Positions 8,193 through 44,584 are shown, counted from the first letter of the stretch. The stretch is 64,000 nt of DNA from an uncultured Christensenella sp. (GCA_964387705.1 CAYLWT010000004.1:4242-68241), one strand, 5' to 3'. Notes: generated from the letters alone by a model not told the origin. Numbers and translations are program-made.

Positions 8193-8210
8193 AACCTGCA
8201 ATTTGATACA

Positions 8211-8240: not shown

Positions 8241-8257
8241 AATTTTAAATAGAAAAT

Positions 8258-9379: not shown

Positions 9380-9430
9380 CTGAAACCTAACCTTACGAGT
9401 ATTATAACATTTTTTCTACAAACTTTGCAA

Positions 9431-9712
9431 CTATATGAGCAACTGTTGTCCAACAAATATAAATAAAATATTGTTTTTTTCTTTAATTTCCTCCACCGTT
9501 GTCCCAAAATTTTGTGCAATGGAATTTAAACTTTCCCCAGGAAGCACAGTATGAACTCTAAGTGATCTTTTGTCAACAAAAATAAATCCGTCATCATCTC
9601 CCGAAATTGTAGCTTGAGGAATAGAAAATTCTTTTGCAACATCTACTTTTTTTCGTCCAACAATTTTTATTATTTCAAAAGGCAAAATGTCCACCTTTTT
9701 AATTCCACCCAT
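9431..9712 (-). CDS. LysM domain protein
   Basis: C-terminal HTVLPGESLNSIAQNFGTTVEEIKEKNNI...GQQLLI is a LysM domain; RBS AAGGAG. Confidence 0.85.
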   Translation of the reverse strand: MGGIKKVDILPFEIIKIVGRKKVDVAKEFSIPQATISGDDDGFIFVDKRSLRVHTVLPGESLNSIAQNFGTTVEEIKEKNNILFIFVGQQLLI

Positions 9713-9784
9713 TTTTTTCTCCTTTTTAATTCTAATAACAGCTTAAGCGTAAATATATTTATATATATTCAATAGGAGAAAATT

Positions 9785-22352: not shown

Positions 22353-22481
22353 AAAAATCTCTCCTAAAATTATATTTGTCAAACAAAAAATGTAAAAATA
22401 TTTGTTGACTTGCCCAAAAAATTGGTTAATTTTGCAAAAAAATGTAGTATTGCAACCAAACCAAAAGATTAAAGCACGCTA

Positions 22482-27504: not shown

Positions 27505-28014
27505 TTATTCACACAACTCTTGCATACGCCTTGCATATTTCCCACCAAGTGATTTTGTGGAAAGAAACACTTCAACCATTTTTTCCGCATCATCCACAGA
27601 CGTCACTCTACCTCCAAGAGCCAGTGCATTTATTCCATTATGAAGACATGCTTTTTCCACCTCGTCTTTGCTATGTCCCACCGCACAAAAAATATTCTTA
27701 TGCTTATTCAACCCGATGCTCACTCCAACTCCACTTCCACAAAAAGCAATTATTTTCACATCTTCAAATTCATCAATTTTCTTTTCATTTTTGCCCAATT
27801 TTTCCTCAATAACCTGCGAATTTTGAGAAGTTATTTTTTCAGCAGTTGCCTTGTCAAAAGCCTTGCACATAAGCTTAACAAATTTTGAAAAGTCATCATC
27901 ACTATCTTCTTCAAAGGCCCCCACATCAACAACAGAATAACCCCTGTCACAAAGTTTTTCTTTTATTTTTTCTTTAAGCAAAAATCCGCCATGGTCAGCA
28001 CCCAAAATGATCAT
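27505..28014 (-). CDS. rpiB: Ribose-5-phosphate isomerase B (RpiB/LacA/LacB family)
   Basis: GADHGG, FCGSGVGVSI and HNGINALALGGR motifs; carries an insertion of about 25-30 aa. Confidence 0.85.
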   Translation of the reverse strand: MIILGADHGGFLLKEKIKEKLCDRGYSVVDVGAFEEDSDDDFSKFVKLMCKAFDKATAEKITSQNSQVIEEKLGKNEKKIDEFEDVKIIAFCGSGVGVSIGLNKHKNIFCAVGHSKDEVEKACLHNGINALALGGRVTSVDDAEKMVEVFLSTKSLGGKYARRMQELCE

Positions 28015-29255: not shown

Positions 29256-29886
29256 TTTTTATTTCCTTTTCTTGAGATTTTTCTTTTGAAATTGCACGCT
29301 TGTATGCAATTTGAAGTTTTGGCAAATTGTAACGCAAAATCATTGCTGGAAGAGTGTTTAAAAACACACTCACAATAGCCACTGGAAGTCCAATGCAAAA
29401 CCAATATTTTGGCAGTGGAAAAAGCAAAATCAAAAAACTGAGAGGCAAAGTTATTACATGTCCAACAAAACCCTTGTTGCACTCTACAACAAATCGCTTT
29501 AAATATTCAGAACTATTTGGGTCCACCATTTTTTTCTTGCTAAATCCTCCCACAGCACCTAGTTCCCAAACTTTATCTTTCCACTTTTTTATTTTAATTT
29601 TGTCGTAGAATTTTCGTTCTTTATCACTCGTTTTGAAATGGCTGTTTTCATCAAACCATTTGTTTGGCATAATGTGAATAATCCCCTCTGCAGCAAGGTT
29701 TATAACCACCTCCACAATCACTGCAAGGACAACTGTCAAAATTGTCCAAAGAGGGGAAATATTTGCAACCATGGGATTAAAAAAGATATTGCACACGGCA
29801 ATTATTGTCATTGCCACAAAAATAATACTCAAATACAAAACCATAAATTTTCTTCCGTTCTTTAGTTTTTTTGCAATTTTTATCAC
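29236..29886 (-). CDS. CrtO-like (glycosyl-4,4'-diaponeurosporenoate acyltransferase family) membrane protein
   Basis: KIKKWKD..E.G..GFSKK...EYLKRF.VE..H...N..P.M.LRYNLPKL pattern matches my recollection of this family. Start may be GTG 29886 or ATG 29844. Confidence 0.6.
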   Translation of the reverse strand: MIKIAKKLKNGRKFMVLYLSIIFVAMTIIAVCNIFFNPMVANISPLWTILTVVLAVIVEVVINLAAEGIIHIMPNKWFDENSHFKTSDKERKFYDKIKIKKWKDKVWELGAVGGFSKKKMVDPNSSEYLKRFVVECNKGFVGHVITLPLSFLILLFPLPKYWFCIGLPVAIVSVFLNTLPAMILRYNLPKLQIAYKRAISKEKSQEKEIKNENNIG

Positions 29887-30052
29887 AAAATTTGTTAGAA
29901 ATTACACAATTTTTACTATAAATTTGCACAATTTTTGTATTACAAATTTGATACAATTTTCAATTGCAATGATATTTTAGCACATTGTTTTAAAACACAC
30001 AAGTCAATTGTTAACAATTTTCTTTCCCCATTAAAATATATGCAAAAAAGCC

Positions 30053-30091
30053 AACTCTACGATTTGTAGAGTTTCGAAAAATAAACTCTAC
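30053..30091. promoter_or_regulatory. Palindromic operator plus half site in the divergent CrtO-like/GT8 intergenic region
   Basis: aactctac-gattt-gtagagtt (30053-30073, perfect 8-bp arms) and half site aactctac (30084-30091). 17/18 identical to 43446-43463. Confidence 0.7.
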
Positions 30092-30220
30092 ACAATCAAA
30101 AAACAACAATAGACAAAAAAACTAAATTTTCCCTTTGACTTTGCAAACAATTATGTAATAATGGCAACGTCAAGCACAAGTTTTGACAGATATTATTGAC
30201 ATAAAAAGGAAATTTTTAAA

Positions 30221-31192
30221 ATGAATTTGATAAAAAAATCATCTAAAATATTAGAAAAAACGAATGTAATTCCTGTGTTTTTTGCAACTGACGACAACTA
30301 TGCCCCACTGCTTGCTGTGGCGGTGTATTCGCTTGTAAAATACTCTTCTCCAAAAAATCAATACAATATTTATGTGTTGAACACGGGACTTTCTGAAGAA
30401 AGCGTTAAGTCAATTTCAAAATTTGAATGCAAGAATGTTTCCATACAATTTATAAATGTTGAAGAATACTTGCAATCAGTTTTGTCAAAACTTCACACGA
30501 GAGATTATTACACTGTCAGCACCTACTATAGACTTTTCATTCCACGTATGTTTCCTCAATATGAAAAAGTTTTGTATCTTGATTCTGACATCATTATTCT
30601 TGATGACATTGCAAATCTTTACAATGTGGACATCAAAAACAATTTTTTGGGAGCGGTGTCAGACCAAGCAGTTGGAAATGTGTATGAATTTGTGCAATAT
30701 TCCAACCAATATCTTGGGATTTGTGAAAAAATGTATTTTAATGCTGGCATTCTCATTATGAATCTTAAAGAACTTAGAAACGACGGATTTGAGGACAAAT
30801 TTGTTGACCTTTTGAATAAAATTAAATTTACTGTGGCACAAGACCAAGATTATCTTAATGTCATTTGTAAAGATAAGGTTCACTATCTTCCTCTCCGTTG
30901 GAATAGAACGCCGTTTGGCAAATGCAGTGATGACGAGGACAATGGCATTGTCCACTTCTTCCTAAGTTACAAGCCATGGCACTATGACAATGTTCCTTTC
31001 GAAAAACAATTTTGGGCACTCACTCGAGAGGCGGGTTTCTTTGACAAAATTCTTGAAATGAAATGCAAATATTCCGACAAAAATAAGCAAAAAGACGTTG
31101 AAGGTTATGAAAGATTGAAAAAGACCGCTTTTGAACAAGCAAATTCACTCAATCCCTTTTGCAAAATGGAATTCGCCAAAGTAACAATTTAA
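30221..31192 (+). CDS. Glycosyltransferase family 8
   Basis: IPVFFATDDNY, TYYRLFIP, KVLYLDSD (DxD), YFNAG, DQDYLN and HFFLSYKPW motifs. Confidence 0.92.
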   Translation: MNLIKKSSKILEKTNVIPVFFATDDNYAPLLAVAVYSLVKYSSPKNQYNIYVLNTGLSEESVKSISKFECKNVSIQFINVEEYLQSVLSKLHTRDYYTVSTYYRLFIPRMFPQYEKVLYLDSDIIILDDIANLYNVDIKNNFLGAVSDQAVGNVYEFVQYSNQYLGICEKMYFNAGILIMNLKELRNDGFEDKFVDLLNKIKFTVAQDQDYLNVICKDKVHYLPLRWNRTPFGKCSDDEDNGIVHFFLSYKPWHYDNVPFEKQFWALTREAGFFDKILEMKCKYSDKNKQKDVEGYERLKKTAFEQANSLNPFCKMEFAKVTI

Positions 31193-31198
31193 TTTTCA

Positions 31199-31234
31199 AA
31201 ATGCAACAGGTCATCCCTTGTTGCATTTGTTTTT
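31199..31234 (+). terminator. Intrinsic terminator after GT8
   Basis: aaatgcaacagg-tcatc-cct-tgttgcattt followed by gttttt. A new promoter TTGCAA-16-TATAAT lies at 31247-31274. Confidence 0.7.
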
Positions 31235-31298
31235 GTGCCATTTTAATTGCAAAATATTTTTAAAGAGATATAATAAACATATATAAAAGGTGAAGATT

Positions 31299-32138
31299 AT
31301 GGGACTTAACGAAGATAGAAAAAAAATTGTTGAAAAAATTGAACAGTATGAACGAGAGGAAAAGTGGGATGTTGATGTTGAGGATGACCCTCCTGCCCCA
31401 CAACTTTTACCAAACAAAGTGGACTATTTGAACAAAAAACTTTCTAGCAAATTTGGGACATGGATTGCGAACAAAGTTGCAGTTAAATATTTTGACAAGG
31501 AAATTAAACAAGGGCGACTTATTATCGATAAAGTTGTTGGTATGGAAAACTATGACAAAGTTGCAGATTTGGGTGTTGTAATAACTTGCAACCACTTTAA
31601 TGTTTATGACAATTATGTTGTATTCAAAGCCCTTCAAAAAAAACTTGGGAAAAGGAGACTTTACAAGGTTATTCGTGAAGGAAATTTCACCAACTTCCCC
31701 GGGATTTTTGGATATATGTTTAAGCATTGCAACACTCTTCCCTTAAGTAGCAATTATGAAACAATGAAATTGTTTATGAATGCAACCAAAACCCTTTTAA
31801 ATCGTGGCGAGAAAATTTTGATATATCCAGAACAAGCAATGTGGTGGAACTATAAAAAACCAAGGCCACTTAAATCGGGAGCTTTTAAAATTGCCGTATC
31901 CGCTGGGGCTCCAATTTTGCCATGTTTTATCACGATGACTGACAGTGACAAAGAATCTCCTGACGGCTCAATGTATCAACGATACACCTTACACATATTA
32001 CCGGCAATTTTCCCTGACAAGACAAAACCTGCAAAAGAACAATCTCAAGAGTTGTCTATGCAAAATTATGAAATGTGGAAAATTGTTTATGAAAAAACTT
32101 ACGGAATAAAACTTGAATATGCAAAAAAAGGAGATTGA
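31299..32138 (+). CDS. Lysophospholipid/PlsC-type acyltransferase
   Basis: NHFNVYD (HX4D) and LIYPEQ motifs. Start moved to ATG 31299 (RBS AGGTGA). Confidence 0.85.
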   Translation: MGLNEDRKKIVEKIEQYEREEKWDVDVEDDPPAPQLLPNKVDYLNKKLSSKFGTWIANKVAVKYFDKEIKQGRLIIDKVVGMENYDKVADLGVVITCNHFNVYDNYVVFKALQKKLGKRRLYKVIREGNFTNFPGIFGYMFKHCNTLPLSSNYETMKLFMNATKTLLNRGEKILIYPEQAMWWNYKKPRPLKSGAFKIAVSAGAPILPCFITMTDSDKESPDGSMYQRYTLHILPAIFPDKTKPAKEQSQELSMQNYEMWKIVYEKTYGIKLEYAKKGD

Positions 32139-32168
32139 CAAATCTCTTTTTTTTGATACAATAAAAGT

Positions 32169-32612
32169 ATGGAAACAAAATTTTTTGCACAATGCGAACA
32201 ATTCCCAAATTTATATTTGGATGTTAATTATGATAATGAAGATTCTTTTTACAAAGCGACTGCTATGTCTATGCAAAATGAAGAAATGGGATATATAACA
32301 TACAAATTTATCCCAGAAGAAAGACTTGCTTGGCTTTGTAAAATTGAAACTTATGAAAATTTTCAACACCGGGGGGTCGCAACTGCCCTGCTTGCATTTT
32401 TTGAACAAGAAGCCCTCTCCAAAAGATATCGCAATGTTGAAGGAAAATATTACCCAAGCAACAAATTTGCAAAACCATTTTATGAAAAGATGGGATATGC
32501 CATAGAACGAGAAGGATATGGACAATTTGTTGGCAAATATCTTAGCCAAGAAAGGGATATCCGCTTTGAGATAACGCAAAATTTGCCAAATGAAGAAATG
32601 TCAACAAAATAA
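32169..32612 (+). CDS. GNAT family N-acetyltransferase
   Basis: IETYENFQHRGVATALL (motif A) and AKPFYEKMGY (motif B). Confidence 0.85.
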   Translation: METKFFAQCEQFPNLYLDVNYDNEDSFYKATAMSMQNEEMGYITYKFIPEERLAWLCKIETYENFQHRGVATALLAFFEQEALSKRYRNVEGKYYPSNKFAKPFYEKMGYAIEREGYGQFVGKYLSQERDIRFEITQNLPNEEMSTK

Positions 32613-32625
32613 AATTTAATCATCA

Positions 32626-32655
32626 AAAAAGGTCAGAGATTTCTCTGACCTTTTT
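32626..32655. terminator. Bidirectional terminator shared by the GNAT gene and tRNA-Asn
   Basis: aaaaa-ggtcagag-attt-ctctgacc-ttttt, abutting the tRNA CCA end. Confidence 0.9.
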
Positions 32656-32729
32656 GGCTCCCCGGGTCCGGCTCGAACGGACAACCTATCGGTTAACAGC
32701 CGAGTGCTCCACCATTGAGCTACCGAGGA
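32655..32729 (-). tRNA. tRNA-Asn (GTT)
   Basis: Minus strand TCCTCGGTAGCTCAATGGTGGAGCACTCGGCTGTTAACCGATAGGTTGTCCGTTCGAGCCGGACCCGGGGAGCCA folds into a cloverleaf with GTT anticodon and encoded CCA. Confidence 0.97.
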
Positions 32730-32769
32730 ATATTCTTGCAATGCGAAAACAATTTCTCAATGCTCATAT

Positions 32770-32798
32770 ATAATAACAAAAGCATTTTGAATTGTCAA
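32770..32798 (-). promoter_or_regulatory. tRNA-Asn promoter
   Basis: TTGACA-17-TATTAT with TG extension on the minus strand. Confidence 0.8.
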
Positions 32799-32993
32799 CA
32801 AATATTTCAAAGTTTTTCAAAAAAATTGTCATTTTTTATTCTCTTTTTTCATATTTAAAGTCCAATAAACAAAATTCTCTTTCATTTTTATAGTTTTACA
32901 ACAAAAATGTTATAACATTTTGACGTAAGAAACGACTCAAAATCTCATTTTTATGCGATTACGCTTAAAACAAGATACCCCTTCCCCTCGAAT

Positions 32994-34769
32994 TCATTTT
33001 GCCAATTTGCTAAATTGTTTTAATTTTTCGTTAAGGTAACCGAATGCGACGTCAAATGGTTCTGATGTGGAAAAATCTACTTTTACAATTTTGAGGAGTT
33101 CTGTTGGGCTGTTGGTGCAACCTGAACTTAAAAATTTTTTGTAATCGTCAACAGTTATTTTGCCCGACTTTAAATTTTCCACAATATTTATTGCAGAAAT
33201 TTCACCCGTTGCATACTTATATACATAAAAAGCATTGAAAAAATGCGGGATGCGACTCCATTCATATTGAACTTCTGACAAAATTTTGACACCTTTCCCA
33301 AAAAATTTTTTAACAAGGTCAAGATATGTTTTATTTAAGACTTTTGATGAAATTTCTTCGTTATTTTCTACTTTTGAGTGAATTTGACTTTCAAAATCCG
33401 CGAACATTGTTTGTCTAAAAACCGTTGCATGAAAGTTGGATAAAAATTCGTTTAAATAAAACATTTTTTCCTTGTTCGTTTGGGCCGTCTCGCTCATAAA
33501 TTCATTAAGCAAAGTCTCATTTACTGTGCTGGCAATTTCAGCTAGAAATATAGTATAGTCTGCATTTGCAACACTTTGGGCAGAGTCGGAATACACACTA
33601 TGCATTGCATGTCCCAATTCATGAGCCAAAGTGGACACATCATTAAAACTTCCAACAAAATTTGTCAACACTCGAGGAGTCTTTTGGGCGGCCATTGTTT
33701 GATAAGCTCCGCCAACTTTATTTTCACTTGGGAAAACATCAATCATTTGGTTTTGAGCCATATATTTGATATGCTCAACATAATCTTCTCCCAAAAGTCC
33801 CAATCCCCTACACACAAGAGCCAGCGCTTCCTCATATGTCCACTTTGCTTTAAGTTTTGAAGGGTTGTAATATACATCTGCCAAACTGAAAGTTTTTAAG
33901 CCCAAAAGTTTTTTCTTTATTGCGAAATATTTATGCTCCAAGGGAAGAAATTTTTCAACATTTTTCAATAAATTTTTATACACATCACTTGACACATCTT
34001 CATAAAACAATGCACAATCTAAAGCGCTATCAAAATTTTTTGCTCTGGCATAAAAAATGTCTTTTTTGACGCTTCCGAGATAATTTGATGTAAGAAAATT
34101 GTTGTATCTGCCATATGCACCTTGAAGCTCTTTATATGCATTTTGCCTCAAAGTCGGGTCACCGCTTCTTAAATACTCGCTGGCAAGACTTTGACTCATT
34201 TGATGAGTTTTCCCTTTGCCATCTTTTATATCTTTAAATTTCAAATCGCCATCATCAAAATTGGAGTGATTTTGTGAAAAATCACCCGTAAAACTTGACA
34301 CAAGTGACAAAATTTTTTCGCAAGGTTCTGAAAGTGTATGTGGTTTTTCTCGGAGAATATCCTTTAAAATTTTCGAATAATTAGCGAATTTCTTGTTGTT
34401 TAGAAGTGAAGTTAAAAAACTATCGTCTAATTTTGAAAGTTGTGGCATAGAAAAAGACAATGCGACCCCATATTCTGTGAACAAATTCTCAAGTTTATTT
34501 TGTCTTGCTTGCGAAATATTGTTGGCGACATCAACATCTCTTTTACAATGAGAATAAACATATAATGCTTGAAGTTGAATGTTGCATTTTTCCGAAAGTT
34601 TGAGAAATTTTAGGATATTCCCTTCATCAGTTAACTTATTGTCGAACGATTTGAGTTTCGGAATTTGTTTTTGCATATCTAAAAATGCATCATTCCACTT
34701 TTCATCATTTTCAAAATAATCTCTAAAATCCCATTTATATTTTACATCTATTTCTTCTCGTTTTTTCAT
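32994..34769 (-). CDS. pepF: Oligoendopeptidase F (M3B)
   Basis: TLAHELGHAMH zinc motif, FLAEIAS, QYEWSRIPHF and YVYKYATG; 591 aa. Confidence 0.95.
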   Translation of the reverse strand: MKKREEIDVKYKWDFRDYFENDEKWNDAFLDMQKQIPKLKSFDNKLTDEGNILKFLKLSEKCNIQLQALYVYSHCKRDVDVANNISQARQNKLENLFTEYGVALSFSMPQLSKLDDSFLTSLLNNKKFANYSKILKDILREKPHTLSEPCEKILSLVSSFTGDFSQNHSNFDDGDLKFKDIKDGKGKTHQMSQSLASEYLRSGDPTLRQNAYKELQGAYGRYNNFLTSNYLGSVKKDIFYARAKNFDSALDCALFYEDVSSDVYKNLLKNVEKFLPLEHKYFAIKKKLLGLKTFSLADVYYNPSKLKAKWTYEEALALVCRGLGLLGEDYVEHIKYMAQNQMIDVFPSENKVGGAYQTMAAQKTPRVLTNFVGSFNDVSTLAHELGHAMHSVYSDSAQSVANADYTIFLAEIASTVNETLLNEFMSETAQTNKEKMFYLNEFLSNFHATVFRQTMFADFESQIHSKVENNEEISSKVLNKTYLDLVKKFFGKGVKILSEVQYEWSRIPHFFNAFYVYKYATGEISAINIVENLKSGKITVDDYKKFLSSGCTNSPTELLKIVKVDFSTSEPFDVAFGYLNEKLKQFSKLAK

Positions 34770-34778
34770 ATTTTCTCC

Positions 34779-35741
34779 TTAAAACAAATTGATGACAAAA
34801 CCAAGCAAACTTCCAAGAACAAACAGCAACCCAATAATGAGCAAGTTTTGTTTTACATTTTTGTTTAGTTTGAAAAGCACAACAGTTGCAATCCCACAAT
34901 TTACGCAAAGGCCTGCAATGCACGAGCCCAGTGAGATTATTCCATTCATAAACAAGTCTGTTATTGCAATTGATGAAGCACAATTTGGAATCATTCCCAC
35001 AAGCGCTACCAAAATTGGTTGAAAAACACCAGTTGAGGTCATAAAGTTTTGAATAGAATCTTCGCCAACGAACATAACAAGAAGCCCTATTATTATATTC
35101 ATCACAAGAACAAACGCAAAAATCTTAAGCGAGTGCAAAAGTGGATGCACAAGAATTTCTTTCCATTTGCTGTGATTTTTTTCAAGTTCATGATGGCAAC
35201 AACCATGAATTTCATGCATGGAGTGTTCTTCATTATGCTCATTTTCATTCGAATTTTTCTCATTTTCATCACATTCTGAAAGATTTTTGTTTGTGACTAA
35301 ATTTTCTGTCGCAAAATTTTGTGAATTATTTTTATTCAAACACCTAACAATCATATCCACCACAAGTCCAACCAAAACGGCATACACAAATTTTATCCCC
35401 AAAATTAAAAACAAATTGGGATATTGTTCAGGTTGAGTAAGAAGCAGTGGCACCGCTTCATCTGAAGTCGCGATAAAAATTGCCATAAGAGACCCCATCG
35501 TTATTATCTTCTTGCTGAACAAATCCGTGGCGACAACAGAAAAACCACATTGAGGAATAAGCCCAAATCCCGCCCCCGCAATAGGAGCAAATTTGCTTTT
35601 TAGAAAATTTGATGATTGATATTTCACCAAAATTTTTTCTTCCAAAAGCTCAATAAGCATGTAGCAAACAAAAATTATCGGCAAAAGTTTTGCCGAGTCT
35701 ATAAGTGCATCTAATAAAACTTCTAATATTTCTTTAAACAT
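34779..35741 (-). CDS. Putative metal (manganese/arsenic efflux-type) transporter with His-rich loop
   Basis: GLIPQCGFSV, ATSDEA and GMIPNCASS motifs; loop NEHNEEHSMHEIHGCCHHE. Confidence 0.75.
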   Translation of the reverse strand: MFKEILEVLLDALIDSAKLLPIIFVCYMLIELLEEKILVKYQSSNFLKSKFAPIAGAGFGLIPQCGFSVVATDLFSKKIITMGSLMAIFIATSDEAVPLLLTQPEQYPNLFLILGIKFVYAVLVGLVVDMIVRCLNKNNSQNFATENLVTNKNLSECDENEKNSNENEHNEEHSMHEIHGCCHHELEKNHSKWKEILVHPLLHSLKIFAFVLVMNIIIGLLVMFVGEDSIQNFMTSTGVFQPILVALVGMIPNCASSIAITDLFMNGIISLGSCIAGLCVNCGIATVVLFKLNKNVKQNLLIIGLLFVLGSLLGFVINLF

Positions 35742-35826
35742 ATTTAAATTTTACTACAATATCTTAAAATAGTAAAGAAAAAAAATGGGACTAGACAAGT
35801 TACGACAAAAAATGTATAATTGAGAT
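35742..35826. promoter_or_regulatory. Back-to-back sigma-A promoters, each ending 6 nt before an ATG
   Basis: Plus strand TAGACA(35792)-17-TATAAT(35815)-6-ATG. Minus strand TTTACT(35776)-17-TAAAAT(35753)-6-ATG. Confidence 0.75.
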
Positions 35827-36813
35827 ATGAAACAGAAATATTTTAAAAAATCTATGCTAGAGCAAATAAAAAGCAAATTTTCACACGAATTTTTGTTCGA
35901 AATAATTGTTTTGCCACCCATTTTTAAACGTTATCCACTGTTTTTTCAGTTAATGTTCCCCATTTGCGAAAAGAAAAACAATGGTTTTTCTCGCCCAGTG
36001 GGGATTGCAAGAATTGACAATTTTGGCATAACAAAACTTATAAAACTAGATAACCAAGATTTTTTCACAAATCGTGATTTTGGGCAAAAATATTATTTCA
36101 AAAAAGATGTGGAGTTTTTAAAAGTTGCATTGGACAAACTTTTTACATGCCAGCCAACGCTTGCTCTTTTTGAAAATAAGGATTATCAAGCAAAATATCT
36201 ATCTACTTTAAAAACCCTGGTTGGAGAAGAATTTTTTAAGTTTTATCTTGAACTTGCATCAAACGAAATAAAACACACAGAACTACCCAAAGTTTTCCAT
36301 CAAGAAATAGAACAAAAAATTCAAACAACGCCTATTGAAAGTGATTTAAAATTGCAATTATCCAACTTTGTAAAAAAAGAAATTGTGCCAGAATTTTTTG
36401 GCAAAAGTGCTTATGTTAGAATTTGTTTTTATCAAAATTTTGGTGAAATGCTTTTAAAAAACTTTTCTGAAGAGCAATTGTCTATCAGCAAACTTAAATT
36501 TGAAACCACAAAGTGCTATGCAAAAGCAATGAACGAATTATCCAGCATTGATGGAGAAACAGATTTCTTATGCCGACTTATTTTGATTTGCCTAAACACA
36601 CTTCTCATCAAAGAAAAAGGTGAACTTTCACAAAATTACATTGATGAAATAAACGATTCAAAAACGATTTTTAACAATGAAATAAAGTTAGTAAAAGATG
36701 AAAAAACAAGGAAAAATCTTGAAAAAATTATGCACAGCATTGTAAAAGATTGTGAAAAAAGCATTTCTACAAGTGCCATTTTTGTGGGATATAAAAATGT
36801 TTTTTTACAATAA
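35827..36813 (+). CDS. Hypothetical protein (328 aa)
   Basis: Long ORF with a clear promoter; no motif recognised. Confidence 0.7.
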   Translation: MKQKYFKKSMLEQIKSKFSHEFLFEIIVLPPIFKRYPLFFQLMFPICEKKNNGFSRPVGIARIDNFGITKLIKLDNQDFFTNRDFGQKYYFKKDVEFLKVALDKLFTCQPTLALFENKDYQAKYLSTLKTLVGEEFFKFYLELASNEIKHTELPKVFHQEIEQKIQTTPIESDLKLQLSNFVKKEIVPEFFGKSAYVRICFYQNFGEMLLKNFSEEQLSISKLKFETTKCYAKAMNELSSIDGETDFLCRLILICLNTLLIKEKGELSQNYIDEINDSKTIFNNEIKLVKDEKTRKNLEKIMHSIVKDCEKSISTSAIFVGYKNVFLQ

Positions 36814-36837
36814 ATTTAAATGAAATTTGCTTGATTT

Positions 36838-37581
36838 TTAACTATTTTTGCTTTCTCTTTTTGCATCATTGTAGAAATCAAATGCTTTCATAATTTCCTC
36901 CAAATCTTCTTTTGGATTCAATGCTTCTTTCAGGTCAAATCCGCTATCTTCCTCCACCTCTTGAACCTTTAGAGGATATTTTTTTGGCTGTTCTTCAACA
37001 AGTTTGTTAAGTTCAAAAATACTATCTAACTTTTCCACATGTTTCGGATCTGCCTTTTTTACACTTTCCTTTGCCTCATTTTTTGTTGGAGCGAATGCTT
37101 CATGTTGCTCACTTGGAATCTTATTAAGCCCAATCATCTTTGTCAAAAGCCTTTTAACTGGGTCTCCGGAGGAACTTTCCATAAGATTTTGTTTTTGTTT
37201 TTGCACATTGTTTTCCAGTGAACTTCTGCAATCTTGAATCAATGCAAGCAACTCTTTTTTTACACTTCTTTCATTATAAATATTTTCATCTTTCAAAAGA
37301 TTTTCCATTTTTGTGTAAAGCAAATTTAATTTTTTTGTTTCTAGTTCGTAAATGTTTTTTGAACTATTTTCAATAAGTCTTGCTCTTTCCACGGCAGACA
37401 CCAACGAAGTCATAAGTTCATTATCACTATTAGATGTAATTTTTTCAAGTTGGTCCTTGAGATAAAAAATTCTATCCTTTTGTTCCGCCAGTCGCGATTC
37501 ATAATCATAAACCAATCGTTCAATATAGCTATCCACCTCAAGTTGGCTATACCCTTTCTTAATTATCTTAAAATTAGCCAT
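36838..37581 (-). CDS. DivIVA-domain coiled-coil protein
   Basis: N-terminal FKIIKKGYSQLEVDSYIE resembles the DivIVA F...RGY...EVD.FL motif, followed by coiled coil; RBS AAGGAGG. Confidence 0.65.
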   Translation of the reverse strand: MANFKIIKKGYSQLEVDSYIERLVYDYESRLAEQKDRIFYLKDQLEKITSNSDNELMTSLVSAVERARLIENSSKNIYELETKKLNLLYTKMENLLKDENIYNERSVKKELLALIQDCRSSLENNVQKQKQNLMESSSGDPVKRLLTKMIGLNKIPSEQHEAFAPTKNEAKESVKKADPKHVEKLDSIFELNKLVEEQPKKYPLKVQEVEEDSGFDLKEALNPKEDLEEIMKAFDFYNDAKRESKNS

Positions 37582-38353
37582 TTATAGCCTCCTTTTTGTG
37601 TGATTTTGTCAAAACCAAAACAAGCATAATACACCCAGTTATTACAAGCAACACGCTTAAAAGTTGTGAAGCTCTAAATGTACCCAACATTAAGCACTCA
37701 CTCGGATCCCTATACTGTTCCAAAATAGCTCTTATTGTGCCATAAAAAATGAAATATCCACTTGTAACAACGCCTGCATTTTTTACTTTTTCTGTCAAAA
37801 GCAAAAGCATCAAAACCCCAAGCAAATCTAATATGCTTTCATAAAAAAATGTTGCCAAGTGCCATACTCCACCAATTTGAACGCTTACCGGAAAAACTTT
37901 TAGATATTCAACAGTTGGCTCTATTCCATAACAACAACCTGCAAAATAACAACCGATTCTACCGATAGCCTGTCCCAAAAAAAGACAAGGTGCGCAGAGG
38001 TCGCAAGCTTGAAGCAAATTATATTTATGAATTTTGCAACAGAGCAAAACTCCAAGAAAACCGCCAATTACCCCACCATATATGGCAAGCCCACCATTCC
38101 AAACTTCAAATATTTGCCAAAAAGTTGAGACCCCATTTAAAGCACAATAATAAATCCTTGCTCCAACAATGGCACAAGGCAATGCATACAATGCAAGGTT
38201 TATGGGCATATTTGTGTCAATTGACTTTTTCCTACATATATAATAGGCACACAAAATACCTGCGACCATTCCAAAAGCGATCATTGTTCCATACCATGGA
38301 ATTTGAAGTCCAAACAAATTATAGGTTTGACCATTAAGCAACATTTCTCTCAT
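37574..38353 (-). CDS. lgt: Prolipoprotein diacylglyceryl transferase
   Basis: IPWYG, VGARIYY, WNGGLAIYGGVIGG, GQAIGRIGCYFAG, ATFFYES and YGTIRAILEQYR motifs. Confidence 0.95.
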   Translation of the reverse strand: MREMLLNGQTYNLFGLQIPWYGTMIAFGMVAGILCAYYICRKKSIDTNMPINLALYALPCAIVGARIYYCALNGVSTFWQIFEVWNGGLAIYGGVIGGFLGVLLCCKIHKYNLLQACDLCAPCLFLGQAIGRIGCYFAGCCYGIEPTVEYLKVFPVSVQIGGVWHLATFFYESILDLLGVLMLLLLTEKVKNAGVVTSGYFIFYGTIRAILEQYRDPSECLMLGTFRASQLLSVLLVITGCIMLVLVLTKSHKKEAING

Positions 38354-38415
38354 AGTATCTATTATATCCTATAATTGCACAAAAAGGAAATCTTTTTTTG
38401 TCCAAAAAACAAATT

Positions 38416-39681
38416 TTATTTCCTTTTTAAAACTACAAGACTTTCAATATGGAAGGTTTGTGGAAACATATCGAAGATTTCAAACGATTTAATCTCATAA
38501 TTTTTACTTAAAAAAACAATATTTTGTTTCAAAGTGTAAGGATTGCATGAAATCATAACAATTTTTTGTGGAAGCGTTCGCAAAATTATATCAAGAGTAT
38601 GCTTTCCAACTCCCATTCTTGGGGGGTCAAGCACAACTGTTGCGTCTTTATTTCGCAAAAGCAATTTTTCCATTTCAACATCACAATCGCCATTTATATT
38701 GTGTAAATTATTCAAATTATTAAGTTTTTTGGCATCATTTGCATCTTTTGTTGCATCTTTTTCAATTTCAATGGAAAAAACTTCTTTTGCACGCTTTGCC
38801 ATTATACAACTTAAAAGCCCTACCCCACTATACCCTTCAATTACAACATTGTCCGAAATTTCTTCCAAAACTTTGGAATACATTTTTAAAGCGACTTCAT
38901 CATTTATTTGGAAAAAAGATAATGGTCTTACAAAAGATTTTATTCCAAATCTCTCAAGCGGGATTTTTTCCTCACCATAAAAATGTTTACATTCTTTCCC
39001 CAAAATTTTGTTCTTTGACGGATTTATACTTACAAATAAGCCAAATTTATCACCAAATGAGCCTTTGAGAGTATCAATAAAATCCGTTAAAATTTTATAA
39101 TCAAATTCTCGTCTTGCTACAACACATATGCTCACATGTTCACCTATATTTCGCACCACAATATGGCAAATTTGACAATTTTTTGCATTTTTTAGCCACT
39201 TTTTTGCAATATTTAATACAATATTTATATTTTTGTTTGCAACAATGCAATTTGAGATTTCACAAATTTCATGTGAATTTGATTTTCTTAGCCCAATTTT
39301 ATCTTCAAGAACAGCAAAAGCAACCTTATTTCGGAATTCAAAACTTTTTGGACTTGCATTTGCTACAATCTCTCCAAAGAATAAACCTTTAAAATACTCT
39401 TTTATTATATTTTTCTTTATTTCAAGCCCTCTTTGAGAATTTACAAACATAAAGTCACACCCACCGCAATTCCCAACATATGGGCATTCTGGACATATGC
39501 GTAAGTGTGAAGGTGTGCAAATGTTTTTCGATAAGCCTTGCATAAAATTATTTTTTTCTTGTAAAATTTCTACTTCAACAATTTCGTCTGGGAGAACTCC
39601 ATTGACACACATTTTTTTGCCATCAACAAAACATTGTCCCTCTCCATTTATATTCAAACTTTCAATTTTAATTTTGTTCAT
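38416..39681 (-). CDS. rlmD: 23S rRNA (uracil-5)-methyltransferase RlmD/RumA family
   Basis: CP...CGGC Fe-S motif, SFFQIN, YSGVG, VLDPPRMG, ISCNP and DMFPQTFHIE motifs. Confidence 0.9.
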   Translation of the reverse strand: MNKIKIESLNINGEGQCFVDGKKMCVNGVLPDEIVEVEILQEKNNFMQGLSKNICTPSHLRICPECPYVGNCGGCDFMFVNSQRGLEIKKNIIKEYFKGLFFGEIVANASPKSFEFRNKVAFAVLEDKIGLRKSNSHEICEISNCIVANKNINIVLNIAKKWLKNAKNCQICHIVVRNIGEHVSICVVARREFDYKILTDFIDTLKGSFGDKFGLFVSINPSKNKILGKECKHFYGEEKIPLERFGIKSFVRPLSFFQINDEVALKMYSKVLEEISDNVVIEGYSGVGLLSCIMAKRAKEVFSIEIEKDATKDANDAKKLNNLNNLHNINGDCDVEMEKLLLRNKDATVVLDPPRMGVGKHTLDIILRTLPQKIVMISCNPYTLKQNIVFLSKNYEIKSFEIFDMFPQTFHIESLVVLKRK

Positions 39682-39734
39682 ATGAACATATTAACACATA
39701 ACGACAATTTTTGCAAATATGTTAATTAAGATTG

Positions 39735-40079
39735 TCAAATAACCCCCAAACTTATCATCATTGCCCTGTTAATTTCGTTCATTTTATATTCGCTAAGTTC
39801 CCCTATTTTCCCACGCAATCGCGATTTATCTATCGTTCTAATTTGCTCAAGTAAAACCACTGAATCCTTTTCAAGTCCATACTCCTTTGATGATAGTTCT
39901 ATGTGCGTGGGAATTCGAGATTTGTTAAGTCTACTCGTAATTGCTGCTGCTATAACTGTTGGGCTGTATTTGTTCCCAATGTCATTTTGAACGACAAGCA
40001 CTGGCCGCAATCCTCCCTGCTCACTTCCGACAACTGGACTTAAATCGGCATAATAAAGTTCCCCTCTTTTAACAATCAT
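39735..40079 (-). CDS. ndoA: PemK/MazF family toxin (EndoA-type mRNA interferase)
   Basis: [39 protein letters not shown]...[10 protein letters not shown] is a close match to EndoA. Confidence 0.95.
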
Positions 40080-40252
40080 ACAAAACCCCGTATAAATTTT
40101 TGATAATCAAACACAAACTTTTCCTCAATAATTCTTCCTTCAAAATTCACCGCTTTTTTGCACCAATAATACTTATCAAGACTTTCCCTCACATAAATTG
40201 TATGAGTGCAAATGCAATAATTGTTAACAACAAAAGACGTGTTATCCTTCAT
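40076..40252 (-). CDS. 58-aa ORF translationally coupled to ndoA; candidate antitoxin (not in ORF track)
   Basis: RBS AAGGGG; [58 protein letters not shown]; its TGA overlaps the ndoA ATG (ATGA). Confidence 0.6.
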
Positions 40253-40406
40253 CAAATAATTCCCCTTTTTTGCGAATTTAAAACAACATTTCGAATATAG
40301 TTTGCGAAATGTATGAATTATTATCCTAAAACGAAGGTTCTTAACTCATTTTATTTGTCGTTCTTACAATTTGTGGTACAATGGGTTTAAAGAGTAGGAG
40401 AAAAAT

Positions 40407-40967
40407 ATGTTTTATCATAAATATAACTCACCGCTTGGAATAATTGTAATGCAAAGTGATGGTGAGGTATTAATAGGCTTGTGGTTTGAAAATGGTGTTG
40501 ATAGTGCTAAACTCAATCTAGGAGAAGAAAAGGAACTATTAATTTTTAAAAAAACAGTTAAGTGGCTTGACATATACTTTGGTGGAACGAATCCAAATTT
40601 TATTCCCAAATATAAAATTTTAAATATGACTCCATTTAGAGAGCTAGTTATAAAAATTATAGAAAAAATTCCATATGGAAAAACTATTTCGTATAATGAC
40701 ATCGCGCTTAAAATAGCAAAACAACTTGGAATAAAAAAAATGTCCCCTCAAGCAGTTGGGAATGCTGTGGGGTGGAATCCTATATGTATTATTGTTCCCT
40801 GCCATAGAGTTGTGGGGGCAAATGGGAACCTTACTGGGTATCGGGGTGGACTTAAGAATAAAGTTGAGTTGTTAAGATTAGAGCATAATGATATGAATAA
40901 ATTTAGCATGCCAAAAAATAAAAACAAAATTTCGAATATTGTTCTTAAAAAGACAATTTATAAATAA
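40407..40967 (+). CDS. ogt: Methylated-DNA--protein-cysteine methyltransferase
   Basis: IPYGKTISY, AVGNAVGWNP and IVPCHRV active-site motif; promoter TTGTCG-16-TACAAT. Confidence 0.93.
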   Translation: MFYHKYNSPLGIIVMQSDGEVLIGLWFENGVDSAKLNLGEEKELLIFKKTVKWLDIYFGGTNPNFIPKYKILNMTPFRELVIKIIEKIPYGKTISYNDIALKIAKQLGIKKMSPQAVGNAVGWNPICIIVPCHRVVGANGNLTGYRGGLKNKVELLRLEHNDMNKFSMPKNKNKISNIVLKKTIYK

Positions 40968-40983
40968 TAGTAAAAATAATTAC

Positions 40984-41394
40984 TTAATATAAAATACAAG
41001 TTGAAACTGCAATTTCATCTGAATGAGCAATTGATATATCAAGGTCGTTTGTTCCCAAAATTGGTTCAAGTTTTCCATTTATATCGTTAACATATGGAGC
41101 TCCGTATTCATCATGCAAAATCTCAATATCTTGCAAACAGACCTCTTTTCCAAGGCCAGTTTTAATCGCTTTTGCAACCGCTTCTTTTGCACAAAAAGTG
41201 CCTGCCATATGCACAGCCTTATCGGCGAATTTTTGAAAATAAGCAAGCTCCTTTTCGGTATATATTTTCTCTGGGTGCTTAAATCCTCTAAACCTCACAA
41301 CCATTTCAATATCAGTCCCAACCCTAACTTTGCTATGGTCTTTTACGTGTTCTATCGGGCCTTCAATTTCTTCCAGTTTCTTTAATTTTTTCAT
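40984..41394 (-). CDS. acpS: Holo-ACP synthase
   Basis: VGTDIE, AGTFCAKEAVAKA, GAPYV and SIAHSD motifs. Start moved to ATG 41394 (RBS GGAGG). Confidence 0.9.
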   Translation of the reverse strand: MKKLKKLEEIEGPIEHVKDHSKVRVGTDIEMVVRFRGFKHPEKIYTEKELAYFQKFADKAVHMAGTFCAKEAVAKAIKTGLGKEVCLQDIEILHDEYGAPYVNDINGKLEPILGTNDLDISIAHSDEIAVSTCILY

Positions 41395-41443
41395 TTTTTC
41401 CCTCCAATCATATATATCGGCTACGCACACCCTTTAAAAAAAA

Positions 41444-42073
41444 TCATTCGTCTTCTTCATCAACATCTTGAAAATTATATTTTCTACTTATCGCATTAGA
41501 AACAATCTCTGGCGAATATCCGTGCGACATAAGAAACCTAAATGCTTTCTGTTTTGTTTTCAAATCTAGGGTTTTATTTCTCAAATATTTTTCAAGCACA
41601 CCCCCCACTGTTTTTTCATCTTCACAAAAGTTTTCAATACTATTATCTATAATTTGTTCTTCAATACCCTTGTGTTTTAATTCATATTCAAGTTTTTTTT
41701 GCCCACAATTTTTTCCTTTCGCTTTTACATAGTTTTTTGCAAACAATTCATCATCTACAAAATGATACTCTTCTAGTTTTTCTAAAACGTAATCTATGGT
41801 TTCCGCTTCAAATCCTTTCTTTAGTAAATAGTCATTTATTTGTTTTTTTGTCTTTTGACACTTGGCAATATATCCTGTAGCCTTTCCCAAGGCAACCTGT
41901 TTCTCAGTTTCAAACCTTAGATATTTAAGTTGTTGCTCAGATGTTTGTTGTCCCTCTTTTAAATGATTTTTCATTACTGTTTCTAGAGACAACCCACAAA
42001 AAAACTCATCGTCAATATATAAATTTACCCGATTTTTATTGCGTTTTTGCACTTCAATTTTTGTTATTTGCAA
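41444..42073 (-). CDS. recX: Regulatory protein RecX
   Basis: QITKIEVQKRNKNRVNLYID, DDELFAKNYV, LKHKGI and RFLMSHGY motifs. Confidence 0.9.
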   Translation of the reverse strand: MQITKIEVQKRNKNRVNLYIDDEFFCGLSLETVMKNHLKEGQQTSEQQLKYLRFETEKQVALGKATGYIAKCQKTKKQINDYLLKKGFEAETIDYVLEKLEEYHFVDDELFAKNYVKAKGKNCGQKKLEYELKHKGIEEQIIDNSIENFCEDEKTVGGVLEKYLRNKTLDLKTKQKAFRFLMSHGYSPEIVSNAISRKYNFQDVDEEDE

Positions 42074-42137
42074 TCTTCACCTCGAAAATAATATGAATTG
42101 TTTCTTTCCAATTTTTAATAAATTATATTTGCCATAT

Positions 42138-42725
42138 CTAGCATGAATACTGAACTTTGTCAGTTATCTCCAGCGGGATTAATTCTTTCAACCAAATGTA
42201 ATCTGGAGTTGAAAGGAACACCTCAAATTTCACTTTATTATTATAAATTATATTTCCAAATGTAATTTTGCGTTTGTCACATTCTGACTTTATCTTAGCA
42301 AAAAGTTGATAATCACAAGCACCAAGACAAAGAGATTTGAGTTCCACCTGAGTCAAATTTTCTATCAACGTTTGACGAGCTGATTCCTTATACGCTCTGC
42401 CAAGGTTTGCAGTGCCAAGTTTAATTCCGCCAAAATACCTCACAACAACACATAATACATTTATAACTTCGTTCTCCTTAAGTAATTGTAAGATTTGTGA
42501 ACCTGCAGTCCCTCCGGGTTCTCCATCCTCGCACGATCGCTCTATAAGTTCATTGTCAAATATTCTATATGCGTAACAAATGTGTCGGCTTGAAGGATGT
42601 TCACTTTTTATTTTTTTTAAAATGTTCAACACTTCTTCTTTTGATTGAGCAAAAAAACTATATGACAAAAACTTAGACCTCTCCTCAACATACTTCCCTT
42701 GTCTTTGGCCTAAAATTGTGTTCAT
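42138..42725 (-). CDS. yigZ: YigZ/IMPACT family protein
   Basis: EERSKF, HICYAY, EDGEPGGTAG and VVRYFGGIKLG motifs. Confidence 0.92.
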   Translation of the reverse strand: MNTILGQRQGKYVEERSKFLSYSFFAQSKEEVLNILKKIKSEHPSSRHICYAYRIFDNELIERSCEDGEPGGTAGSQILQLLKENEVINVLCVVVRYFGGIKLGTANLGRAYKESARQTLIENLTQVELKSLCLGACDYQLFAKIKSECDKRKITFGNIIYNNKVKFEVFLSTPDYIWLKELIPLEITDKVQYSC

Positions 42726-43393
42726 TTTGAAACCTCTTTAATTTTTTGCTTATCACGAATTTTCCTAAAAACAAACCACAAAAGGGCCAAAATTTGAACA
42801 GGAATTGCAAGAATAAAAGCCAACCAACCAAATTCAATTGGCACGCAAATGTAAAAGGCCAATGCTGTTGACCATGTGAGAAGTGAAACAAAAATACAAT
42901 TTAGCATATTTGTGCACCAAATGCTTGAAAAAACTAAACAAATGACAAATGAAATTGGAATCGCTACGATATAAATTTTCCAACATTCATCTTTTATCCC
43001 TGGAATAAAATTGAAACAAATGCAAAAGAATCCAACAGCGACAAGCCACACCAGTCCAGTGGAAAGCAATGTTATCATCAGCTGTTTGGTTGAAAAAAGT
43101 TTTGACTTGCGTTTTTCATCCTTAACTGCAGGAATATCCCCTTCAGAATGGGGGCATAAAAAATCATTGACTGTCACACCATAAAGATTTGCAATTTGAC
43201 TTAAAACAATTATATCTGGTATAGCCTCACCTCGTTCCCACTTGGAAATATTTTTGTCAGAATATAAAAGTTTCTCCGCGAGTTCAAGTTGCGTAAGTTT
43301 GCTTGCCTTTCTAAAATAAACAAGGTTTTTGGCGATTAAGGTTCTAATTTCGTCATTTTCATAAGCTTGATTTTGAGTAATACTTTCTTCCAT
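42722..43393 (-). CDS. XRE-family HTH regulator with four C-terminal TM helices
   Basis: IAKNLVYFRKASKLTQLELAEKLLYSDKNISKWERGEAIPD HTH; hydrophobic C-terminal half. Confidence 0.88.
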   Translation of the reverse strand: MEESITQNQAYENDEIRTLIAKNLVYFRKASKLTQLELAEKLLYSDKNISKWERGEAIPDIIVLSQIANLYGVTVNDFLCPHSEGDIPAVKDEKRKSKLFSTKQLMITLLSTGLVWLVAVGFFCICFNFIPGIKDECWKIYIVAIPISFVICLVFSSIWCTNMLNCIFVSLLTWSTALAFYICVPIEFGWLAFILAIPVQILALLWFVFRKIRDKQKIKEVSK

Positions 43394-43444
43394 ACATTCA
43401 TTTTAATATATTAAAAGAAAATATGCAACTTGTTTTCACATAAA

Positions 43445-43463
43445 TTCTACAATTTGTAGAGTT
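43445..43463. promoter_or_regulatory. Palindromic operator upstream of the XRE-TM gene
   Basis: ttctac-aattt-gtagagtt lies 17-35 nt upstream of the -35 (TTGCAT 43428-43423; -10 TAAAAT 43405-43400). It matches the 30053-30073 site. Confidence 0.65.
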
Positions 43464-43495: not shown

Positions 43496-44584
43496 TTACT
43501 TAAAAACTTGGTCAATCACACCGCCACCAAGACAATTCTCCTGCTCATCATAAAGTACGACATACTGTCCTGGAGTCACCGCTCGTTGAGGCTCTTTAAA
43601 AACAATTTTAACAATGTCATCACCAACATAAACATCTACTTCTTGGTCAGGTTGCCTATAGCGGAATTTCGCGAAACAATGAAAGTTTCGTTTTTCTGGA
43701 ACACATGGAATCCAATTAAATTCTTTTGCCAAAAGGTAGTTACTGAACAATTTATCATCTTCCCCTTGATGAACAATTAGGCGATTGTTTTTTACGTCTT
43801 TGTCCAAAACGAACCACCTTTCACCATTCCCGCCTGACTTTCCGCCGATATTAAGACCTTTTCGCTGTCCCAATGTGTAGTAAAGCACCCCATCATGATG
43901 ACCAACTATGTTGCCGTTTGTGTCCACAATGTCACCCGAAGTTGCAGGAATGTAATGTTTCAAAAAGTTTTTGAAATTTCTTTCACCTATAAAACAAACC
44001 CCTGTGCTGTCTTTTTTCTTCGCATTTACAAGTTTAAATTTCTCAGCAAGTTCTCTCACTTTTGTTTTTGGAATGTCAGCCAAAGGGAAAATGACTTGAG
44101 AAAGTTGGGCTTGAGAAAGTTGGTTAAGAAAATAACTCTGGTCTTTTGATTTGTCAAAAGCCTTCTTTAGTTGATAATAATTGCCAACTTTTTCCACTTT
44201 GCAATAATGTCCCGTTGCAATTTTATCTGCTCCAAGCATTTTGGCATATTCCAGAAATGGTCCAAATTTAATTTCCCTGTTGCAGAGAACGTCTGGATTT
44301 GGAGTTCTGCCTTTTTCATATTCACTAAGAAAATGTACAAAAACTCTATCCCAATATTCTTTTGAAAAATTCACTGAATAATATGGAATTCCTATTGTTT
44401 CGCAAACTCGCCTGACGTCTTCATAATCTTCAGTTGCGGTGCAAACGCCAGAATCGTCTTTTTCCTCCCAATTATCCATAAAAAGTCCAATAACATTGTA
44501 TCCTTGTTGTTTCAGAAGCAAGGCAGAAACGGCACTGTCAACGCCTCCACTCATTCCAACAACAACTGTTGTTTTTTCTTCCAT
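43496..44584 (-). CDS. mnmA: tRNA-specific 2-thiouridylase MnmA
   Basis: [42 protein letters not shown] and PQRAVTPGQ motifs. Confidence 0.97.

Follow-up and report, generated by a model that had tools for sequence, protein, structure and literature searches.

What does a 21-base palindrome do when one copy stands between two divergent lipid genes and the other, 13 kb away, lies at the promoter of a gene for a membrane-bound regulator? The question is raised by a 64,000-nucleotide (nt) stretch of DNA from an uncultured Christensenella sp. (GCA_964387705.1, CAYLWT010000004.1:4242-68241), which we call the window and whose positions are counted from its first letter. The regulator gene (42722-43393, minus strand) encodes a 223-amino-acid (aa) protein with an XRE-family helix-turn-helix (HTH) domain (Pfam HTH_3, E 3e-12) and four transmembrane (TM) helices, and the divergent genes encode a GT8-family glycosyltransferase and a CrtO-like acyltransferase. 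We hold with good confidence that the palindrome is the operator of this protein and that the GT8 and CrtO-like genes belong to its regulon. An original prediction, made from the sequence of the window, had read the protein as a membrane-sensing one-component regulator of glycolipid or membrane genes, and the comparative genomics described below lend support to that reading.

Two copies of the palindrome in the window

A search for AACTCTAC-N5-GTAGAGTT on either strand, with up to 2 mismatches, returned two matches in the 64-kb window, the span covered by the motif scan of the source genome: 30053-30073 and 43443-43463. The first is a perfect 8-N5-8 repeat (AACTCTACGATTTGTAGAGTT) with GATTT between its arms, and the second (AATTCTACAATTTGTAGAGTT) has one mismatch in the left arm (AATTCTAC-AATTT-GTAGAGTT, or AACTCTACAAATTGTAGAATT on the gene strand). 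In 100 dinucleotide-preserving shuffles the mean number of matches was 0.01 and two matches occurred in 0/100, and chance coincidence is excluded for this pair. The original prediction had started from the 18-mers at 30056-30073 and 43446-43463, which are indeed identical at 17/18 positions, and from an extra half site at 30084-30091, which is a further AACTCTAC; its placement of one copy at the XRE-HTH/4-TM gene and of the other between the CrtO-like and GT8 genes also held when the genes were called.

Further AACTCTAC octamers at 21424, 25040 and 53193 are isolated and lie within open reading frames (ORFs), and we dismissed them as sites. At 61319-61356 there is an 11-bp inverted repeat, TCTACAACAAC...GTTGTTGTAGA, whose TCTAC/GTAGA ends resemble the operator with a 28-nt interval between the 5-mers; we rejected it as an operator copy, as it is a different inverted repeat and probably an unrelated hairpin. 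The TCTAC/GTAGA 5-mers were rarer in the window than expected from base composition (60 observed, ~139 expected).

Position of the two copies relative to predicted promoters

The copy at 43443-43463 is a putative operator at the regulator's own promoter, which was predicted at 43400-43428 on the minus strand (-35 TTGCAT at 43423-43428, 17-nt spacer, -10 TAAAAT at 43400-43405). The gap from the -10 to the ATG (43393) is 6 nt and there is no Shine-Dalgarno sequence, so that the regulator mRNA is probably leaderless; relative to this predicted start, the operator centre lies at about -60.

The copy at 30053-30073 is a putative operator in the divergent CrtO/GT8 intergenic region. On its GT8 side follow the third half site (30084-30091) and an AATAGAC element (30108-30114; opposite strand GTCTATT), which lies 20 nt before the GT8 -35 and may be a degenerate fourth half site. 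The promoter scan placed the GT8 promoter at 30135-30162 on the plus strand (TTGACT, 16 nt, TG-n-AATAAT), and the promoter of the CrtO-like gene was predicted at 29974-30002 on the minus strand (TTGTGT, 17 nt, TG-c-TAAAAT). Relative to the GT8 start, predicted near 30169 on the plus strand, the palindrome centre is at about -106, with the third half site nearer at about -82; relative to the CrtO start, predicted near 29967 on the minus strand, the palindrome centre is at about -96.

Conservation of both sites in relatives

Contigs with 72-87% identical regulators retained the order mnmA, regulator, YigZ. In the alignment of this locus, CTCTACAAATTGTAGAATT and the downstream TTGCAT-17-TAAAAT promoter were invariant; the operator was unchanged in five relatives (L001-L004 and L012 in our numbering of loci), and the stretch from the mnmA stop to the palindrome varied, with indels. 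Contigs with 74-88% identical CrtO-like proteins retained the divergent GT8/CrtO arrangement, and amid variable sequence AAYTCTACAAATYGTAGAGT, the extra half site and the two promoters were invariant in five relatives (L005-L008 and L092). Exactly one TCTAC-N5-GTAGA was found per CrtO/GT8 locus, at the orthologous place. The complement of the third half site, TGTAGA(A/G)T, and the TCTATT of the AATAGAC element were likewise invariant in this alignment, in which the GT8 promoter hexamers and CAATGTGnTAnAAT and TTGACTTGTGTGTT of the CrtO-like promoter were also kept. Phylogenetic footprinting upstream of orthologues, which the original prediction had proposed as a check, thus found the motif conserved at both loci. 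In a 52%-identical relative the cluster is arranged as GT8-PlsC-CrtO-hisS with GTAGAATT-ta-AATTCTAC upstream of GT8, and on the contig of the same relative the regulator gene retains TCTAC-N5-GTAGA.

The motif follows the regulator gene

An exhaustive HMMER search placed the regulator in a family of 177 50%-identity clusters at E<=1e-30. A profile scan with one genome per GTDB species yielded 80 loci with homologues 35-72% identical, which together with the loci fetched earlier made 86 loci (proteins 35-87% identical). An exact TCTAC-N5-GTAGA was present upstream of the regulator gene in 51/86 loci, 47-100 nt before the start codon, and a version with one mismatch in 4 more. Because the mnmA and YigZ/IMPACT neighbours are gone below ~50% regulator identity, the motif belongs with the regulator gene and not with mnmA. 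When at most 1 mismatch was allowed, YTCTAC-N5-GTAGAR matched 64 sites in 1.33 Mb of loci, practically all at regulator or cluster positions; the dispersed repeat at unrelated 3' ends, against which the original prediction had warned, is not what these counts describe. The operator consensus was a-C/T-TCTAC-t-nnn-a-GTAGA-a/g-t.

Of 44 site-bearing loci, 27 lack a Shine-Dalgarno sequence and have a -10-like hexamer whose end is 5-8 nt (typically 6) ahead of the ATG, which indicates that mRNAs of the regulator family would be leaderless there; with leaderless starts, the operator centre falls mostly at -47 to -70. A second site in L020 (CALGIK010000104.1) was discarded as an artefact of inverted duplication, since at ~3770-10617 this contig is mirrored on itself at ~7190 (regulator, DegV and a 439-aa gene), almost certainly through an error in the assembly of this metagenome-assembled genome (MAG).

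The regulator gene beside lipid genes

Profile scanning of metagenome contigs with CrtO-like proteins gave another 80 loci, in which GT8-PlsC-CrtO is usually a co-directional operon. A regulator homologue stands directly beside GT8-PlsC-CrtO in 13 metagenome loci and in one further MAG (L174), with the regulator gene divergent or immediately upstream, and these cluster-adjacent regulators represent at least 4 subclades that are no more than 41% identical to each other. The shared intergenic regions carry arrays of 3-6 TCTAC/GTAGA half sites, some in convergent N5 pairs and others in everted ones, and each array lies upstream of the GT8 -35. At least 2 half sites within 350 nt were found in 30 of the 44 loci with at least 200 nt upstream of GT8 (3 of the 44 were mis-sliced, which leaves ~41 valid), and the background was 0.51 per 350 nt. 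The link between regulator and lipid cluster is stronger than could be seen in the original prediction, with the regulator gene directly beside GT8-PlsC-CrtO in other Clostridia and the putative operator between them. The site was also present without an adjacent regulator in L100, L161, L163, L170 and L173.

In loci where the regulator gene does not adjoin GT8-PlsC-CrtO, a lipid gene is very often its divergent upstream neighbour. Among the divergent upstream neighbours scanned with Pfam (n=39) were DegV (17), acyl-AMP ligase (4), GDSL lipase (3), alpha/beta hydrolase (1) and acyltransferase (1). By jackhmmer, DegV was beside the regulator gene in ~26/80 GTDB loci (~21 upstream divergent, 5 immediately downstream), and in L100 it lies directly before the site and the GT8 operon. 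DegV is the FakB fatty-acid-binding family. Downstream neighbours of regulator genes were heterogeneous, with no conserved partner, and no second regulator gene was conserved near regulator loci among the neighbours scanned. We found no description of the regulator, the operator, the GT8-PlsC-CrtO cluster or their pairing in the literature searched; the original prediction of an undescribed regulon stands in this respect, and it needs to be widened in another, as the regulon is not peculiar to this organism and the association with lipid and fatty-acid genes, including DegV/FakB, extends through the family.

Covariation of operator and recognition helix

Three of the cluster-adjacent regulators (L097, L098 and L174) carry YSDN(A/T)(I/V)SRWE in the recognition helix, in place of the otherwise invariant YSDK..SKWE. 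Their intergenic regions are without TCTAC and carry ATTCCC(A)...(T)GGGAAT palindromes (ATTCCCA-N5-TGGGAAT), which have the same 7-N5-7 geometry and in which the outer AYTC is retained and the inner three bases differ. The exact ATTCCC-N7-GGGAAT was present in 2/172 loci, L097 and L098, and L174 was read directly. Among the arguments for this protein as the probable reader of the site, in preference to a different factor, we regard this covariation as the strongest.

A second operator variant, TTCTCC-N5-GGAGAG, was observed beside a CTCTAC half site in the regulator-GT8 intergenic regions of L154, L155, L159 and L171, whose regulators have YSDKTLSKWE. Specificity may have shifted once more in these loci, or a T/G change at one position may be tolerated.

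Structure of the regulator protein

The HTH_3 domain (PF01381) of the regulator scored 46.6 bits over residues 27-77, with a Pfam gathering cut-off of 23; in NCBIfam, neither the regulator nor the CrtO-like protein matched a family above cut-off. An AlphaFold2 model, built on an alignment of 76 sequences, reached a mean predicted local distance difference test score (pLDDT) of 84.7 and comprises an HTH domain (1-78), a low-confidence linker (~79-101) and four long helices (102-129, 139-159, 162-183 and 191-222) joined by very short loops; pLDDT is ~90 in the membrane helices. Foldseek against the PDB matched XRE HTH domains only (ClgR, C.BclI, ImmR, SinR, DdrO), and the membrane half had no match there. 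Conserved residues of the membrane part are W116, W159 (motif SSIWCTN), W174, P198, Q200 and W206. With a DNA-binding domain and TM segments in one protein and no kinase or receiver domain, the regulator falls within the definition of a one-component transmembrane transcription regulator (TTR) (PMC10269533).

Proposed mechanism and alternatives

We propose that a membrane-embedded dimer would bind the palindrome through tethered HTH domains, each connected by a flexible linker of ~25 residues to the four-helix membrane domain. The binding element would be (A)YTCTAC-N5-GTAGAR(T), with half-site centres 10 bp apart; half-site arrays could receive two dimers or a tetramer, and the flexible linker would give tolerance of both convergent and everted half sites. 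Through the copy at 43443-43463 the regulator would control its own leaderless gene, and through the copy at 30053-30073 together with the extra half site it would control the divergent GT8 and CrtO-like genes. The conserved GT8-PlsC-CrtO cluster most likely makes or remodels an acylated glycolipid. Since the membrane domain is almost without extramembrane loops, the signal would be read within the bilayer, and the neighbour genes suggest a free fatty acid, a lipid intermediate or the membrane state as candidates; that it is a fatty acid or membrane lipid is a tentative proposal. As to the direction of control, we incline slightly towards ligand-dependent activation from sites upstream of the -35, by analogy with BcrR, a membrane-bound regulator of Enterococcus faecalis.

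The same regulator on the same operator could instead be a repressor, bound to DNA at rest and released or re-arranged by a membrane signal, with negative autoregulation as in most XRE proteins, and we consider this quite possible, if somewhat less so than activation. Several promoters are near-consensus and should need no activator, which favours repression: gTTGACa-17-TATAAT in L042, L070, L073, L082 and L083, where the palindrome stops 1 nt short of the -35, TTGACT...TATAAT in L115, and the near-consensus TTGACT with an extended -10 at GT8 of the window. If a dimer sat right against the -35, it could get in the way of sigma region 4 or of the C-terminal domain of the alpha subunit. However, the sites were upstream of the -35 in every locus inspected and never over the -10 or the start, the 30053 site is ~100 bp upstream, and BcrR, the only characterised protein of such architecture, is annotated and described as an activator (PMC3968067). 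It is improbable, by comparison, that the palindrome is bound by a different factor, such as a general regulator of lipid genes, and that the XRE-TM gene is one more target of that factor. The motif does occur upstream of the five GT8 operons without a nearby regulator; yet it tracks the XRE-TM gene through unrelated genomic contexts, the operator differs where the recognition helix differs, its two-fold symmetry and 10-bp half-site spacing suit an XRE dimer, and no second regulator gene is conserved nearby.

Both copies might also work as hairpins, the one at 43443 as the intrinsic terminator of mnmA and the one at 30053 as a minus-strand terminator or insulator with the tail GGCTTTTTTG. The scan flagged 30073-30053 on the minus strand as terminator-like, with a T run on that strand, and the 43443 copy lies 32 nt past the mnmA stop and can join a hairpin of -16.8 kcal/mol in the window. 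We nevertheless consider this very improbable. No minus-strand gene runs into 30073, in agreement with the original prediction that a terminator would have no purpose between CrtO and GT8. The other copy, for which the same prediction had kept open a role as mnmA terminator (43445), is without a U tract, its longer hairpin uses flanking sequence that is deleted or different in relatives, and the motif stays upstream of homologues that have no mnmA neighbour, where it often abuts the -35 box. The arms keep their sequence and show no compensatory changes, shuffled sequences fold at least as well as the stems from other lineages, and no Rfam family matches at either site. Neither copy qualified as a Rho-independent terminator by U tract and transcription-unit 3' end, and outside the arms neither of these features is kept. 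An AT-rich genome and arms of only 8 bp might suggest a chance repeat, or one from a dispersed family such as repetitive extragenic palindromes (REP). We give this hardly any weight, because 2 copies were observed in the 64-kb window where 0.01 were expected, and in relatives each 20-kb locus has a single copy, without exception at the orthologous place. These numbers also differ from those of dispersed repeats like REP or bacterial interspersed mosaic elements (BIME), and we rejected such an assignment.

Several points weigh against control of both loci by the regulator as we propose it. About 1/3 of the homologous loci have no recognisable site upstream of the regulator gene. The assignment of the site to the XRE-TM protein rests on sequence comparison, and the covariation may be one evolutionary event seen in three loci. 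The centre of the 30053 palindrome is ~100 bp from both predicted starts, a long distance if RNA polymerase is to be contacted directly, and the near-consensus form of several target promoters argues against a need for an activator. Moreover, the direct targets in the window may be only GT8 and CrtO-hisS; co-regulation of PlsC is uncertain there because of a terminator-like hairpin after GT8 and a promoter-like site of its own.

Comparison with known systems

The nearest known system, in architecture as well as in principle, is BcrR, the bacitracin sensor and regulator of bcrABD. It acts from the membrane as a one-component regulator without a partner kinase, is encoded beside its target operon (PMC3968067; PMC10269533) and has been moved into Bacillus subtilis (PMC3968067). 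Like the regulator described here, it is a protein of ~200 aa in which an XRE-type HTH at the N-terminus precedes a membrane domain of several helices. Four TM helices are reported for it, as is binding to inverted repeats that precede its target promoter. Homology between the two proteins extends over the HTH (BLASTP against BcrR of pTW9, E 2e-11, 26% identity over 100 aa), whereas beyond residue ~100 no similarity was detectable, and hhalign aligned columns 24-102 only, that is, HTH and linker. The operators also differ, TCTAC-N5-GTAGA here and GACA-N7-TGTC for BcrR, as do the targets, which are a bcrABD-type ATP-binding cassette (ABC) transporter and undecaprenyl-diphosphatase for BcrR and glycosyltransferase/acyltransferase and DegV/FakB-type lipid genes here. 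Unlike BcrR, the regulator gene here is predicted to be autoregulated and leaderless. We therefore did not assign it to the BcrR family, from which it departs outside the HTH (BLASTP, hhalign) and in its neighbours (mnmA/YigZ here; GT8-PlsC-CrtO, DegV, acyl ligases and lipases in relatives). By these comparisons the predicted system works like BcrR, yet lies outside the BcrR family. A tblastn search of plasmids gave weak matches only (~27-31% identity, mostly partial coverage).

The same HTH fold, and the dimer on a short palindrome at its own promoter that we predict here, are also found in lambda/434 cI at PRM, SinR, ImmR, ClgR and the controller C proteins. Lambda PRM, moreover, gives a leaderless mRNA for its regulator and has its operator a short way before the -35. 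These proteins, however, are soluble and have C-terminal oligomerisation or peptidase domains, whereas the regulator here is integrated into the membrane by its C-terminal half and has chromosomal lipid genes as putative targets. The principle of a membrane-tethered DNA-binding domain is shared with ToxR/CadC/TcpP-type regulators, which control transcription directly from the membrane (PMC10269533); these have a winged-helix OmpR-type domain, a single TM helix and a periplasmic sensor, in contrast to the XRE HTH, four TM helices and practically absent extracytoplasmic loops here. With FabT, FapR and FadR the regulator shares the theme of a dedicated regulator with a palindromic operator before fatty-acid or lipid genes; these are soluble MarR-, DeoR- or GntR/TetR-type proteins, unrelated in sequence and operator and not membrane-embedded. 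They sense cytoplasmic acyl-acyl carrier protein, malonyl-coenzyme A (CoA) or acyl-CoA.

For the lipid cluster, the nearest comparison is the CrtO/CrtQ step of staphyloxanthin synthesis in Staphylococcus aureus, where a CrtO-family membrane protein is likewise paired with a glycosyltransferase. The Pfam CrtO match of the 202-aa protein (E 3e-22) is to the glycosyl-4,4'-diaponeurosporenoate acyltransferase family. Unlike CrtO/CrtQ, the cluster has no carotenoid genes, its glycosyltransferase is GT8 and not GT2 as CrtQ, and there is an extra PlsC-like acyltransferase. Because of these three features, the acceptor lipid of the CrtO-like enzyme is probably a glycosyl-glycerolipid.

Membrane-anchored one-component regulators are common in genomes, yet to our knowledge an operator, a regulon or a signal is known for very few of them. 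Here a defined operator and a testable regulon with a fatty-acid and glycolipid theme are proposed for uncultured gut and rumen Clostridia (Christensenellales, Acutalibacteraceae, Oscillospiraceae and others). If the proposal is right, transcription would respond directly to membrane lipid status with no kinase in between, the conserved lipid cluster of three genes would gain an annotation, and a compact sensor-promoter pair would be at hand for transfer to model hosts. A wider view, which we put forward only as a possibility, is that of a widespread family in gut Clostridia, with hundreds of 50%-identity clusters, of intramembrane lipid or fatty-acid sensors. These would directly switch genes that handle exogenous fatty acids (DegV/FakB, acyl-AMP ligases, lipases) and those of a GT8-PlsC-CrtO pathway, previously unassigned, for acylated glycolipids. 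FakB-type genes of Clostridia would thereby gain a first dedicated regulator, and CrtO-like acyltransferases a role other than in carotenoid synthesis.

Genes around the two sites

On the plus strand the order of genes is GT8, PlsC-like acyltransferase and GNAT. The GT8-family retaining glycosyltransferase (30221-31192, Pfam E 1e-49) is LgtC/WbbM-like, has a DxD motif and has sequence matches in the PDB to WbbM and LgtC. The PlsC-like (LPLAT) acyltransferase (31290-32138), part of the conserved GT8-PlsC-CrtO cluster, has the HX4D motif NHFNVYD. Directly after GT8 there is a 12-bp terminator-like hairpin with a T tail (31199-31228, plus strand), and before the PlsC-like gene a promoter-like site, TTGCAA-16-TATAAT (31247-31274, plus strand). 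The cluster may be split into separate transcripts in the lineage of the window.

On the minus strand, the CrtO-like small membrane acyltransferase (29236-29844, PF18927, Pfam E 3e-22, 202 aa) is followed by hisS (28011-29255), whose first 20 nt overlap the end of the CrtO-like gene. No T-box leader was detected upstream of hisS. The CrtO-hisS adjacency is maintained in relatives, including the rearranged GT8-PlsC-CrtO-hisS operon of L010, and the apparent presence of an aminoacyl-tRNA synthetase gene on a lipid-gene transcript is odd. Rfam searches of the whole window at gathering thresholds, and of 29700-30400 at permissive E-values, returned only tRNA-Asn and noise, with no T-box or riboswitch to explain the 330-nt CrtO/GT8 spacer.

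The regulator gene lies between mnmA (43496-44584), upstream of it, and a YigZ/IMPACT-family gene (42138-42725), all on the minus strand; the mnmA stop is 32 nt from the 43443 copy. Because of its 4-nt overlap with the regulator stop, the YigZ/IMPACT gene is probably co-transcribed with the regulator, and it may be a passive regulon member in the lineage of the window only.

Other observations in the window

A MazF/PemK-type toxin gene is located at 39735-40079 on the minus strand (Pfam E 2e-37), and its likely antitoxin is a short upstream ORF in relatives (L009, 12876-13064). At 49584-52211 on the minus strand there is an ORF whose L001 orthologue has DUF87/TraG-like P-loop domains (HerA/FtsK-like ATPase). 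Very large ORFs (1255-1411 aa) occur around it at 18147-22382, 45680-49447 and 52293-56138, and at least the 1411-aa ORF matches Ig-like/PKD surface-protein domains in relatives L005 and L008. The plus strand of the window has 20.3% C and 14.7% G and nearly all long genes are on the minus strand, and this skew together with the strand bias suggests that the window lies on one replichore arm.

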